The notes under the pieces were generated by a model that saw only the letters and a program-made list of their open reading frames with translations, did not search any database and was not told the origin of the DNA. The translations under genes were made by a program, and so were the position numbers. This document shows positions 15,376 to 47,753 of a DNA stretch of 64,000 bases, in pieces. The stretch's first letter is position 1. The number at the start of each line of letters is the position of its first letter. The DNA is taken from NCBI GenBank assembly GCA_964016885.1, contig CAXHJY010001494.1, positions 7,611 to 71,610 of the forward strand, written 5' to 3'. The DNA comes from Eledone cirrhosa (Eukaryota).

Positions 15376-16008
15376 GTTTCTTTATTAGCCACAGGGGCAC
15401 AAAAGAAGGGGACAAATATAAAGGGGGAAATTTACATACCATAAAAACGTGTAAAATACTATCACAAATACAATTTAAAAGTTAATCGATTTTCCCCAAT
15501 AGGGGGAGACAGTTCATATGGGTAACACATACCCCCGAAAAAATGTGCAACCCTCATCTCCAGGAGTACGAAGAGTTTGTACTCCTTTCCTCTCCTCCTC
15601 CTTTTCCTCAACCTACAGGCTGATATAGAGAGAAGGGCCATTCACTCGGGCCATTCTCGCCACTTTCACCTTTCATAAAACTTGCTGGGGTACAGCACCT
15701 CTCTCTCCATCCTGATTCTTCTTCCAAAGTGGTATTTGAAAAAAAGAATCAGTTGTTGGCCGGAGAGAAAGGTGTCTGACCTCAGTCCTTTTAACCTCGT
15801 CCACCATACAACCTCTTTCGCCATAGCTATCACACAAAGGAAAACCGCCTCTCCTTCGTTTTTGAAGGAGGGTGGCGGTTTGATCATGACAATGGACTCG
15901 GTGGTCAACCGGATTGGTCCCACCCGCGACAAAAGTCGTTCTACATAGCCCCACAGGTCAGTGACGCCCGGGCAGTGTATGAATGCGTGCGCGACGGTTT
16001 CTTCGTTA
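15376..16008 (-). mobile_element. Tx1-family LINE 3' remnant, subfamily B, in a GATA tract
   Basis: Encodes EETVAHAFIHC...SRVGPIRLTTESIVMIKPPP...[16 protein letters not shown] plus 3' UTR ending AATAAAGAAA; GATA repeats on both flanks. Confidence 0.92.
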
Positions 16009-16839
16009 AGATAGATAGATAGGTAGATAGATAGGTTGAATTATATATATATATATATATATATTATTGAAGGTACACGTTTAAGTGCGCTGCATCGAAG
16101 GAAATAACGATATGTATACTCTGGGAGTTTATTTAAAATTACCTATTGAGTACGCTGAGATGCAACCGGTCCTAGCAGTGATACCCATGCTAGTTCCGTC
16201 AACTTATATATATATATATATATATATATATATATATATATATATATATATATAAATAAATAATTTAAATAATAAATAAATCAACTAATACCTTAACACT
16301 TCACACAAAGTAAAACATTTCGTTTTAATCATTTTCTAACCCAGAAAAACGAGAGAGAGAGACAAAAAAAAAAGGAAAAAAAAATTTTTTCTTCCTCGTA
16401 ATCGTCTCTTTCTCCCTGTTTTCATATATATATATATATATATATATATATATATATATATATATATATATATATATATATATATATATATATATATATA
16501 TATTCAGCGAGAATCGTATTTCGGCTGGTAGAAAAAGCGAAACGAAACGCAAAATCGTAGAAATGCTGGCAAGCGCTCCAATAGTTAAGAAAACTAGAGC
16601 TAAACAATATGTTAAAACGCCATACAAACTGAAAAGTGGTCAAGAAGGCATTAACCACCTAAGCCAAAAAACAAATCAAGCTAAACAGGTCAAACAAAAT
16701 AATATATATATATATATATATATGAGAGAGAGAGAGAGAGAGAGAGAGAGAGAGAGAGAGAGAGAGAGAGAGAGAGAGAGAGAGAGTCTAGTAATATAGA
16801 GACGAAATTGTTTTCGATGTTACAATTTCAAAAGTCCAT

Positions 16840-17145
16840 TTTTGCCTTTCATCCTTACGGGGTCGATAAAATAAAGTACCAGTAATGCACTGGGTAATTT
16901 GCTGGCCTTGTGCCTAAAGTAGAAACAATTATTATTATTAATAATATAGAGTGGTTGATTGGCAGTATCGGTAGAGGGTTGGACGCCATGCTTTCTAGCA
17001 CAGAGTTACGTCCCTTTATGATCTGAGTTCAAATCCCGCCGAGGTTAACTTTGCCTTTCATCCTTACAGGGTCGATAAAATAAAGTACCAGTAATGTACT
17101 GGGTATTTGCTGGCCTTGTGCCTAAAGTAGAAACAATTATTATTA
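16840..17145 (+). mobile_element. Partial plus full SINE-A in tandem
   Basis: Family consensus at about 16840-16935 and 16952-17145. Confidence 0.85.
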
Positions 17146-17154
17146 TTAATAATA

Positions 17155-17453
17155 TTGTGGTTCTGTAACTCCTCATAGAGTCGTATGGTGCGCCATATTG
17201 ACATACGGGGTTTCTCAGGTCTGAATACAGCAGATTTCTTCCAGAGAAGGATAGGGAGTGAGAGAAAGGAAATAAGGAAGAGATATGGAGGAGGAATCGA
17301 GCCCAGTACTAGAATGGTGCTTTTTTTTTATCGGCCTCGAAAGGATGAAAGGCGAAGTTGACCTCGACAGGATTTGAACTCAGACTGTAAAGGGCCGTAA
17401 CTCCATACTGCAAAGCATGGTGTCCGACTCTCAACCGATCCTGTCAATCCACC
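17155..17453 (-). mobile_element. SINE-A variant with extended tail
   Basis: SINE-A head at 17296-17453; tail at 17155-17290 is homologous to 47940-48130. Confidence 0.6.
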
Positions 17454-19740
17454 GTTTGGAGTCAGAAAGCCGAAAGGAATGCCCTAAAGTATTCTAACTT
17501 CGTTGATACTGACGCTCTACCGACCCTGCCAAATCGCCGTGTTATTACTATAACGGAAGTCTGACGAGCTTTTGATTTCAGACTCGGGCTAGATCGATAC
17601 AGATCGAACCTTGAGCTGATCAATCACGAAAACGCGCGTGGCACCTCAATAAATGTAATGAAGATCTAACATTTCGTCCTCTTTATTATAAGTAGCATAT
17701 ATATATATATATATATATATATGTATATATATATATATATATATATGTATATATATATATATATATATATATATATATATATGTATATATATATATATAT
17801 ATATATATATGTATATATATATATATATATGTATATATATATATATATATATATATATATATATATATATATATATATATATATATATATATATATATAT
17901 ATGTATATATATATATATACATATATATATATATATATATGTATATATATATATATATATATATATATATATATATATATATATATATATATGTGTATAT
18001 ATATATATATATATATATATATATATATATATATATATATATATATATATATATATATTATACACTTCGATTACCTGTACAGGCAATATTTCTTAGAATG
18101 CAGTTAACGTGTGTATACATATATACGTATATATATATATATATATATATATATATATACATATACATATATACATATACATTATGTATATATATACATA
18201 TACATTATATATATACATTATATATATATACATTATATATATACATATACATTATATATATATATATATATATATATACATATATATATATACATACATA
18301 TACATACATAAATATATACATACACACAAGGTATATATATTTACATATACACACACTCACACATACTTAAATTCGTACTCACTCACCTACATACACACAG
18401 ATTCATGCACAGATACGCACACATTCATACGACACACACACACAAACACACACACACACACACACACACACACACACACACTCTCTCTCATATACATACA
18501 TTTACATATATAATTATATATAATAATACCTATAAACAAACATACATTCTACATCTATTTATGGTAGACTTTGTATACACATCACCGTGTATATTCTCAT
18601 CTTTCCCAATTACTTAAAATGGTGGAAATACGGAAGATTTTTTTAAAAAATCCGCCATGTTTTTTTGTGAATTTTTTTTTATATATCTCGTTTCATTTCA
18701 TTATTCTGTTGCTGTTGTTGTTGCTGTCGTTGTTTTTATTGTTGTATTCCCAGTTGTTGTTGTTTTTGCTAGTATTGCTAGTTTTGTTACTGTTCCTTTC
18801 GTTGAAGAAGAAGAAGTTGTTGTTGTTGTAATGGTGGTGATTTTTTTTAGTTGTTGTTGTTGTAATAGTAGTGATTCTTTTTTAGTTGTTGATGTTGTTG
18901 TTTGTTGGTATTCTTAGTTTATATTAGTGTTGTTGTTGTTGTTGATATAGTTGTTGCTGTTGTCATATTTATTCAAATTATTTTCGCTCTTGTTTTTGTT
19001 GTTGTTGTTGTTGTTGTTGTTGTTGTTGTCGTCGTCATTGTTGTTATTGTTGTTATTTTTTACATTTGTTTCTGTTCTAGTTGTTGTTGTCGTTGCTCTA
19101 CATACACATATACATACATACATACGGCGTATGTACATATACATACATATATACAAACGTACGTACATATATACATACATATAAATGATATATATACATA
19201 CATATAATATATATATATACATATCTACATACATACTGTGTATGTACATATAGTTGTACATACTCTATATTCATTATACACTATATACACGCACTAGTAT
19301 ACTTACCCAGTCACACTAAATACATACATGAGTGTGTATGCACTATGTACATACATAGTGCATTAAATATATATATATATACACTCACTATATAGTATGT
19401 ATATACAATAAGATACACTGCCGGTAAAGTAGTTTGGACAACCTCGATCTATCAATAATGACGAAATCGAGAAAAAATCGATAACTGGACAAGACACGAG
19501 GCACTCGGTGTCTTGATAGGAAAACAATGAGATAGCCTCTATGTGGTTCGTTGACATGCTAGAAATAGCAGTCAAATCTCTATATGTATATCAATTTATC
19601 TTTCTATTTACATGTTTCTAACCACACATCTGTCTACCTATATGTCCGTCTGTCTGTCTCTCCATCTATCTATCTATCTATCTATCTATCTATCTATCTA
19701 TCTATCTATCTATCTATCTATCTATCTATCTATCTATATA

Positions 19741-20104
19741 ACCACTTTAGAAGAAGAATCAGGATGGAGAGAGAGGTGCTGTACCCCAGCAAGTTTTATG
19801 AAAGGTGGGTGAAAGTGGCGAGAATGGCCCGAGTGAATGGGCCTTCTCTCTATATCAGCCTGTAGGTTGAAGAAAAGGAGGAGGAGAGGAAAGGGGTACA
19901 AACTCTTCGCACTCCTGAAGATGAGGGTTGCACATTTTTTTCGGGACCTATGTGTTACCCATATGTAATGTCTCCCCCTATTGGGGAAAATCGATTAACT
20001 TTTAAATTGTATTTGTGATAGTATTTTACACGTTTTCATTGTATGTAAACTTCCCCCTTTATATTTGTCCCCTTCTTTTGGGCCCCTGTGGCTAATAAAG
20101 AAAC
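19741..20104 (+). mobile_element. Tx1-family 3' remnant, subfamily B
   Basis: [40 protein letters not shown] plus 3' UTR; directly follows (CTAT)n at 19664-19738. Confidence 0.92.
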
Positions 20105-46553: not shown

Positions 46554-46810
46554 GTCTCTTCTTGCTATATCAAGCGTTAACCTCATATATCCCTTCGATA
46601 TTCTGTACCGATTGTGTTGTTATTTCTGTTTACCTTGTACATACACACACACACATATATATATATAGGAAAATAATCAGGACCCCGACGGTTGAGCTCC
46701 GGCCGTTTCGTCAGCTAGATCCGAACTCTACTACCCTAAGTATCGAGTAATCTGGTGCTTTATGGTCCACCTGGTTCCTTACCACACTTTGTTATATATA
46801 TATATAGGGC

Positions 46811-46998
46811 AGTGGATTGGCAGTATCGGTAGAGGGTCGGACGCCATGCTTTGACGCATAGTTACAGCCCTTGCCATTCTGAGTTCAAATCCCGCCAAGG
46901 TTAACTTTGCCTTTCATCCTTATGGGGTCGATAAAATAATGTACCAGTAATACACTGGGTAATTGCTGGCCTTGTGCCAAAAAAGTAGAAACAGTTAT
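46811..46998 (+). mobile_element. SINE-A
   Basis: Full consensus match. Confidence 0.85.
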
Positions 46999-47089
46999 AT
47001 ATATATATATATTTATATATACTCTGGTGCGTTATGGTCCACTGGTTCCTTACTACACCTTCTATATATGAGAGAGAGAGAGAGAGAGA

Positions 47090-47252
47090 GAAAAGCTTCT
47101 ACAGGACTAGAATTGTTTCAATCGTGATAAATCATCAGGAATGAAACAGTTCTAGTCCTGTAGAAGCTTTTCTATATTAAAACATTTAAACCCTGCTATG
47201 TATTGAGTACCTTACTTACTGTGGTTACCCCCGATTCAACCCAGAATAACTT
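47090..47252. mobile_element. Family F1 inverted dimer
   Basis: GAAAAGCTTCTACAGGACTAGAA..TTCTAGTCCTGTAGAAGCTTTTC; minus arm contains CTGATGA...GAAA. Confidence 0.7.
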
Positions 47253-47316
47253 ATATATATATATATATATATAAATCACACCCCTGTCTATCAATCTCTC
47301 TCTCTATCTATCTATC

Positions 47317-47753
47317 GAGGGCAAACACCTTTCTCTCCGGACAACAACTTATCCCCTTCTTTAAGTATCACTTCAGAAGGAAGGTGAGAGTGGAGAGAGA
47401 GGTGCTACACCCCCAGTAAATTCGCTGAAAGGTGGGTGAATGTGGCGAAAATGGCCCGAGTGAATGGGCCTTCTCTGTATATCTAAACCTGTAGGGTGGG
47501 GAAGATAAACAGAGGGAAGACAAACGGGAACACCTACAAAACGTGTTCCTGGTGTTGAGGGTTGTTCTATCCACGGGGTGTAAAACAACCCTGCAGTAAC
47601 GTCCTCCGTCCCCCTATTGGGGATTTCAATTGTTATTTTATTATATATAGTTTATTGTTATTTATTAATGTTAAAGTTATTTTTATGTAAAACCCCCCGC
47701 CGTCACGTCTTGTAATGTCCCATTTTTGTACGCCCCTGTGGCAAATAAAGAAA
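47317..47753 (+). mobile_element. Tx1-family 3' remnant, older subfamily C
   Basis: [55 protein letters not shown] (frameshifted); UTR ends AATAAAGAAA; CTAT-type flanks. Confidence 0.9.

Follow-up and report, generated by a model that had tools for sequence, protein, structure and literature searches.

A lineage of Tx1-like long interspersed elements (LINEs) inserts preferentially into (TATC)n microsatellites, in a fixed orientation; this conclusion is well supported by the copies found in a 64,000-nucleotide stretch of Eledone cirrhosa DNA (contig CAXHJY010001494.1, positions 7,611 to 71,610 of the forward strand; here called the window) and by junctions in public sequencing data. The seven copies in three subfamilies described in the initial annotation (E1 to E7) were all verified at their coordinates, and a diverged fragment that it had missed (E8, at 40483 to 40563) was added. 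The subfamily B copies are 94 to 96% identical to one another, and identity between subfamilies A (E3, E4, and E6), B (E1, E2, and E5), and C (E7) is 66 to 76% over the aligned 3' columns. The copies, their open reading frames (ORFs), and the adjoining tracts are as follows.

15376 to 16008, minus strand: E1, subfamily B, 5'-truncated, within a plus-strand GATA tract (15301 to 15375 and 16009 to 16040)
19664 to 19737, plus strand: (TATC)18 tract adjoining the 5' junction of E2
19741 to 20104, plus strand: E2, subfamily B, 5'-truncated, with (TA)n as the 3' flank
21652 to 26114, plus strand: E3, subfamily A, 5'-truncated, beginning within ORF1
22415 to 25852, plus strand: ORF2 of E3, intact, 1145 amino acids, with apurinic/apyrimidinic-type endonuclease (APE), reverse transcriptase (RT), and zinc finger
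26115 to 26225, plus strand: degenerate TATC/TACC/TCCA tract, 3' flank of E3 and 5' flank of E4
26226 to 31954, plus strand: E4, subfamily A, 5.7 kb, apparently full-length, with 5' untranslated region (UTR), ORF1, ORF2, and 3'UTR
26441 to 28229, plus strand: ORF1 of E4, frameshifted in a C run near 26885 to 26892, with a predicted RRM-like region and one CCHC knuckle
28254 to 31691, plus strand: ORF2 of E4, intact, 1145 amino acids, with Exo_endo_phos at residues 23 to 227, RVT_1 at 512 to 755, and zf-RVT at 976 to 1032
39941 to 40254, plus strand: E5, subfamily B, 5'-truncated, terminal bases lost, inside a minisatellite containing TATC
40308 to 40427, plus strand: E6, subfamily A, 3'UTR only, with (TATC)n flanking both ends
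40483 to 40563, plus strand: E8, diverged 3'UTR fragment, nearest to subfamily C (76%), junction ambiguous
47317 to 47753, plus strand: E7, subfamily C, 5'-truncated

The 5' junctions carry most of the evidence within the window. A strict test demanded an unbroken TATC-phase repeat, 12 nt or longer, on the sense strand of the element and ending no more than 5 nt from the junction. Six of the seven copies passed, and the tract of E4 is the same but for one TACC interruption; outside the copies, 369 of 103,654 position-strands pass (0.36%). The claim that TATC adjoins all seven 5' junctions therefore stands, except that the junctions represent five independent loci and not seven, because E3 and E4 have one tract in common and E5 and E6 another. 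At all five loci the 5' flank is TATC on the sense strand (chance P of about 6e-13, or about 4e-11 once corrected 66-fold for motif-strand classes). The sense strand is the TATC strand in all seven copies, for which the chance probability from the window's orientations is 0.5^5 = 0.03, and the sole minus-strand copy, E1, does lie inside a plus-strand GATA tract, as had been stated. Among the microsatellites of the window, (TA)n occupies 9,716 bp in 475 tracts versus 576 bp in 30 tracts for TATC/GATA, (TC)n occupies 220 bp in 9 tracts, none of which directly adjoins any copy, and TATC/GATA was found on either side of none of the 15 matches to a common short dispersed repeat of about 190 bp that served as a control. 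The earlier assertion that (TA)n is commoner yet avoided thus holds for abundance; avoidance is not separately shown with five loci. Since a profile search with nhmmer and a tblastn search with 13 relatives gave no lineage copy in the window beyond E1 to E8, the seven-copy set was not cherry-picked. Counted within this 64-kb window, the TATC flank share is 7 of 7 copies, or 7 of 8 if E8 is taken as a miss; more than 20% of flanks is the criterion applied to target-specific Tx1 elements (PMC4494074).

Public sequencing runs extend these observations. The element was present, whole or in part, in 20 of 24 listed runs with three organism labels, six of them containing at least half its words; no RNA run was among the listed runs containing it. 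Four runs (X1, X5, X6, and X7) were compared with a reference made up of E4 and the adjoining 21 nt of TATC flank, with no other microsatellite included; runs with small shares were left aside. In X1, 13 of the 15 joints listed (of 145) link 20 to 21 nt of the TATC flank, on the same strand, to varied internal points of the element, and in a second table 11 of the 12 rows listed (of 55) start from the TATC flank, adding two points. In total there are at least 15 distinct start points between 28960 and 31623, on 16 contigs with depths of 19 to 78 (most 19 to 46); none coincides with the start of a subfamily A copy in the window, and no strand-change joint occurs among the X1 joints listed. Null rates of 0.055 to 0.22%, taken from the window and applied to a generous denominator of 1,606 partly matching contigs, give an expected 0.9 to 3.5 TATC joints (Poisson P of 1e-6 or less). 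The X1 joints thus support the enrichment and the orientation beyond the window, for this run. The fixed orientation claimed earlier was thereby upheld for the window copies and for 15 further junction points.

At the 3' side, the repeat could be either target or tail. The flank is clean TATC in four of the seven copies (E1, E3, E4, and E6) and degenerate TATC in E7, so the earlier count of six TATC 3' junctions was only partly sustained; E2 and E5 are considered below. The intact 3' ends finish in AATAAA and 5 to 6 conserved bases, with poly(A) absent in six of six; in four of the six, ATAT or ATATC comes next. The 263-nt 3'UTR of E4, for example, ends in AATAAAAGAAAC, without poly(A). E3, E4, and E6 have an identical 3' end followed by three different tails that diverge from the first base and echo each site's own tract; the TATC/TACC/TCCA unit of the tract at 26115 to 26225 is also found 5' of E3, and the units flanking E3 match each other. 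Furthermore, TATC is present at the 5' truncation points of E1, E2, E3, E5, and E7, and a 3' tail therefore cannot be its source. Since sister-copy tails differ, poly(A) is absent, and TATC stands at truncated 5' ends, we conclude that TATC is mostly target DNA and not a fixed tail; on the same grounds, the counterexplanation raised with the initial annotation, by which TATC would be no more than a tail encoded by the element, does not hold. A contrasting arrangement is seen in two RTE copies within the window, whose 3' ends carry TAGA-type tails; the single visible RTE 5' end begins in (TA)n. These RTE-type 3' ends, at 48466 to 48590 and 55079 to 55520 (both on the minus strand), are 99% identical.

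The lineage also appears to have been active recently, as had been proposed; this view is supported by the close similarity of E3 and E4, which differ at 27 of 4,466 columns (0.6% divergence), and by the changes between them in ORF2, which is confirmed as intact at 1145 residues in both. Of these changes, 10 are synonymous and 6 nonsynonymous (P of 0.001 to 0.02 against neutral decay), a ratio that fits separate insertions from active sources and not one duplication. At 10 sites where the two disagree, E3 rather than E4 carries the base that prevails in the run, which likewise fits separate source elements. E6 matches E4 at every position over 119 bp. E3 and E4 are both incomplete as assembled, because E3 lacks its 5' end and the ORF1 of E4 is frameshifted. 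One X5 contig and three X1 contigs carry one base fewer at the ORF1 C run near 26890; the break is therefore confined to some copies or to the assembly.

Several observations weigh against target specificity or limit its reach. The TATC at the 3' end of E5 lies about 24 nt away and does not abut the element, E2 sits on a TATC/TA boundary with (TA)n as its 3' flank, and E8 begins 18 to 27 nt past the TATC tract of E6, an ambiguous junction. Target-site duplications are not readable inside the repeats. All listed TATC joints come from X1, possibly the window's own species; none is among the rows listed for X5, X6, and X7, at low cover, and 130 joints and 1,084 loose ends lie outside those listed. 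The flank sides of the X1 joints are 20 to 21 letters long, and joints with a side of fewer than 30 letters are often repeat-derived. Intervening letters are known for 11 X1 joints: the repeat carries on in 8, is degenerate in 2, and gives way to 20 other letters in 1. Microhomology of at least two matching bases at the 5' junction occurs in 3 of 8 known joints, which is suggestive only (about 0.1 under the corrected null). That null, (n+1)p^n(1-p)^2, replaced one that ignored leftward aligner extension and whose P values of 0.009 (3 of 8) and below 5e-5 (7 of 12) were rejected; 3 of 15 joints were excluded since their letters break the repeat. The value for 7 of 12 joints is about 1e-3 under the corrected null and depends on four joints with unread intervening letters. 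Finally, the hairpin loop of the predicted endonuclease (EN) has nine residues between anchors T189 and S199 and is poorly modeled (loop pLDDT of 59). This loop is tied to specificity and has 11 residues in Tx1L versus 9 in promiscuous human L1 (PMC1950540). The loop is thus L1-like in length and not Tx1L-like, and the structure gives specificity no support.

Weighing these points, we think it probable that the ORF2 APE endonuclease nicks the GATA strand and that the freed 3' end primes reverse transcription. The nick would fall in the GATA strand near GAT/A, and priming there would set both the insertion site and the orientation. Because AATAAA lies just 5 to 6 nt before the element end, transcripts probably extend by a few bases into the repeat downstream; the UAUC units gained in this way may promote pairing between the RNA and the nicked strand, in the manner proposed for R1. 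Second-strand joining would then proceed via 1- to 4-nt matches to the top-strand TATC end, and short copies would arise by truncation during reverse transcription. By analogy, such target choice by an endonuclease would have its precedent in Kibi, Koshi, and crocodilian Tx1 elements (PMC4494074).

In a different arrangement, the endonuclease would be loose, and UAUC transcript ends derived from the donor flank would pair with any nicked GATA strand. This RNA-guided route accounts equally well for the orientation, and it draws support from the missing poly(A) in all six intact 3' ends, from the ATAT or ATATC continuing in four of them, and from the L1-like loop length of the EN. It also has published counterparts: primer-site choice by microsatellite-like RNA ends is proposed for RTE elements (PMC6007223) and annealing of flanking sequence is proposed for R1 (PMC2718515). 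We nevertheless judge it unlikely, given that the tails of E3, E4, and E6 differ from the first base and that E2 ends in TA. The motif is kept across subfamilies that are 66 to 76% identical, whereas pure read-through guidance would tend to drift to the far commoner (TA)n after a donor like E2, and the TAGA-tailed RTE copies did not land in GATA tracts.

Compared with nicking of the GATA strand by the element's own endonuclease, an origin without any targeting fares poorly. TATC might have expanded out of element tails or flanking DNA once a copy was in place, or copies might persist better in repeat-rich DNA; the window is extremely microsatellite-rich, two of the seven 5' tracts also form the 3' flank of a copy lying upstream, and passive accumulation is cited for Drosophila Waldo-A and Waldo-B (PMC3812793). 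Retention, however, would favor (TA)n, which exceeds TATC/GATA 17-fold in bases, a tail cannot yield TATC at the truncated 5' ends of E1, E2, E3, E5, and E7 and at 15 X1 points, and the other dispersed repeat adjoins TATC/GATA in 0 of 15 matches, so that we regard this explanation as very improbable. An artifact, in which tandem duplication or misassembly of repeats raised the count and the X1 joints were chimeric contigs, is hardly credible: E3/E4 and E5/E6 are indeed adjacent pairs, short-read contigs can misjoin near microsatellites, and the X1 flank sides of 20 to 21 letters fall within the often repeat-derived range below 30, but E5 is of subfamily B and E6 of subfamily A, the 10 synonymous versus 6 nonsynonymous changes between E3 and E4 fit separate sources, X1 contains 15 different element-side points mostly at depths of 19 to 46, and five loci are left once the pairs are merged.

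The lineage likely belongs to the Tx1 clade on the evidence of its RT sequence, an assignment short of proof because the tree was built without Tx1L and vertebrate L1. Among named proteins, those of Argonauta hians come closest (65% identity over part of the protein and 58% over 1,102 columns); together with the repeat content of the window, this suggests an octopod host. Further relatives at 39 to 46% identity fall in clusters of up to 732 members. Sister families P0003, P0010, P0025, and P0031, at about 41% identity, form clusters of 109 to 732 members on long contigs. The RT tree (49 rows, 438 columns, LG+G4) included 48 stored rows hand-picked from 472 proteins. In it, the window protein, the Argonauta proteins, and the relatives at 39 to 46% form one clade (100/100), and the fish Tx1 proteins (Q76IM4, Q76IM5, Q76IM7, the Danio pol-like protein, and TX1/YTX2) form another (100/99), with the fork between the two left open. 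Q76IM4, Q76IM5, Q76IM7, and the Danio "pol-like" proteins are presumably the Kibi/Koshi-series deposits. The window RT falls with 43 animal-type rows, including those named TX1/YTX2, apart from five plant L1s (100/100), again without settling the fork. In the approximately unbiased (AU) test, nesting within a 7-row core fish group, named after the tree had been seen, was rejected (P = 1.4e-5), and union as sister to the wider clade of 13 fish rows was not (P = 0.35). The RT phylogeny called for in the initial annotation therefore gave the lineage a clade of its own outside the core fish group and left its deeper placement open. A 232-row FastTree did not settle the deep nodes and held no named references.

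Searches further afield gave little. Among viral contigs, none of 81 candidate stretches proved to be a relative at the protein level, and the 3'-end motif had no match; the prokaryote genomes gave one match to that motif, in a Clostridia metagenome-assembled genome, which was taken as chance. Metagenome contigs contained 71 loci, all distant (21 to 51% identity in the best segment); the TATC/GATA flank was absent at the heads and tails of 16 of these 71 loci, a result that is uninformative for the lineage.

The proteins are those of an APE-type LINE. ORF2 matched PF03372 and PF00078, with PF13966 slightly below the cutoff, and the best match of its profile among solved structures was L1 ORF2p (E value of 4e-114); a single-sequence search with the EN against solved structures gave only an E value of 0.06. 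The EN catalytic residues N10, E39, Y112, D141, N143, D202, D226, and H227 are invariant in an alignment with the fish Tx1 proteins, and the predicted EN model (pLDDT of 84) is most similar to human L1-EN (TM score of 0.80 to 0.82). The 5'UTR of E4 is 215 nt. RRM domains together with a CCHC knuckle in ORF1 are a typical feature of Tx1 elements; in the ORF1 of E4, zf-CCHC had an E value of 0.037, under the cutoff, and Atlas look-alikes of CCHC, RRM_1, and ZCCHC3 types (0.90 to 0.92) are a lead only. A consensus splice-donor motif, GAG/GTAAGT, spans the ORF1 stop 24 nt before the ORF2 start (about 28222 to 28232 and 22383 to 22393, plus strand), possibly by chance, and the 3' end of ORF2 contains a 125-bp inverted repeat that is imperfect, at about 71% (31508 to 31622 and 25669 to 25783). 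Two hairpins, a small C-rich/TATT/G-rich one and a terminal GCC...GGC one, recur across subfamilies in the 3'UTRs of E1, E2, E4, E5, E7, and E8; they show one compensatory change and, on weak statistics, are a possible RNA recognition signal. A conserved 3'UTR structure is not claimed: 6 of 34 consensus pairs have a double change (five sequences), but only one of eight single folds reaches a z score of -3.

The GATA/TATC target motif and the lineage are new with respect to the literature searched, and the mechanism class is already known. Sequence specificity of Tx1 elements, cited in the initial annotation for Kibi and Koshi, is in print and includes tetranucleotide targets: Kibi targets (TC)n and Koshi (TTC)n in teleosts, the crocodilian elements Tx1-1/5/6_Crp, Tx1-1_Gav, and Tx1-2/3/5/8_AMi target (TTCC)n and (TTTC)n, and target choice is credited mainly to the endonuclease (PMC4494074). 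The window lineage resembles these elements in being an APE-type Tx1-like LINE in a microsatellite, in having the pyrimidine-rich strand as the named target, and in the common EN catalytic residues. Unlike them, it targets TATC/GATA and not a pure pyrimidine/purine tract, and it differs from the fish references in ORF2 length (1145 versus 1234 to 1329 residues), with an RT identity of 33 to 36%. Outside Tx1, the R1-clade elements Waldo and Mino target (ACAY)n and (AC)n, and Dong targets (TAA)n (PMC3812793); Togen targets (TG)n (PMC4640811). These are likewise microsatellite-specific elements of the non-LTR type (without long terminal repeats), one of them with a tetranucleotide target, but they belong to other clades and have other motifs, none of them GATA/TATC; the target list of PMC3812793 comprises ACAY, AC, TC, TTC, and TAA. 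RTE-clade LINEs (PMC6007223) are similar in having a microsatellite 3' end without poly(A), except that their repeat is a tail, whereas in the window lineage the repeat also occurs at 5' truncation points and varies by locus.

No GATA/TATC-targeting LINE was found in the literature searched, Repbase and Dfam aside; figure 3 and the supplements of PMC4494074 list targets of additional Tx1 families, which may affect how new the motif is. The available text of PMC8967140, PMC11203168, PMC5753468, and PMC8869645 mentions Tx1 or target-specific elements, none with a GATA/TATC target. In Octopus vulgaris, 80 L1-Tx1 families account for 56.3 Mb, and 13 of them are recently active, with 421 insertions (PMC13282606). 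These families are of the same class, probably from the same host group, with no insertion preference described in the parts of that paper available: its text lacks the words "target" and "GATA," and its supplement lacks TATC, GATA, and "target." The window lineage may well be among the O. vulgaris L1-Tx1 consensus sequences.

The GATA/TATC motif, in an invertebrate lineage apart from the fish group, extends the short list of microsatellite-homing LINEs. With a hairpin loop of L1 length yet a defined target, the lineage offers a natural comparison for the gain of specificity by APE endonucleases, and its two intact ORF2s make a nicking test directly feasible. Given that about 56 Mb of O. vulgaris L1-Tx1 sequence has no described target, the same rule may organize much cephalopod repeat DNA, and GATA microsatellite markers could be disturbed by insertions of the lineage. 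RTE elements may seed GATA/TATC tracts in the genome that later become targets of the Tx1-like lineage. It can further be envisioned that a high-copy cephalopod LINE evolved GATA homing independently of Kibi and Koshi, partly by UAUC RNA pairing, and colonized RTE-seeded GATA tracts in a self-feeding cycle that builds repeat-rich octopus DNA; as a whole, this scenario is speculative, and we consider it doubtful.

Other features of the window concern the surroundings of the copies. A unit of about 50 bp ending in (TATC)n flanks E5 on both sides (about 39840 to 39940 and 40255 to 40307) and may represent either a minisatellite unit or a long duplication of the target site. E8 sits between the TATC tract of E6 and a short dispersed repeat at 40558 to 40750. 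The latter is one of the SINE-like (short interspersed element-like) repeats of about 190 bp that served as the flank control, with 15 matches longer than 100 bp; sites include 2128 to 2317, 6968 to 7134, 9719 to 9899, 16954 to 17141, 36991 to 37178, 46816 to 46998, 51849 to 52029, and 54104 to 54295. A fragment of an APE-RT LINE from a different clade lies at about 62460 to 64000 on the plus strand (Exo_endo_phos_2 and RVT_1; 20 to 29% identity to Tx1-like proteins) and begins beside a long (TA)n field. Degenerate, multikilobase (TA)n fields occupy 48590 to 50800 and 55650 to 62450, and an 845-bp inverted repeat is present at 58639 to 59487.

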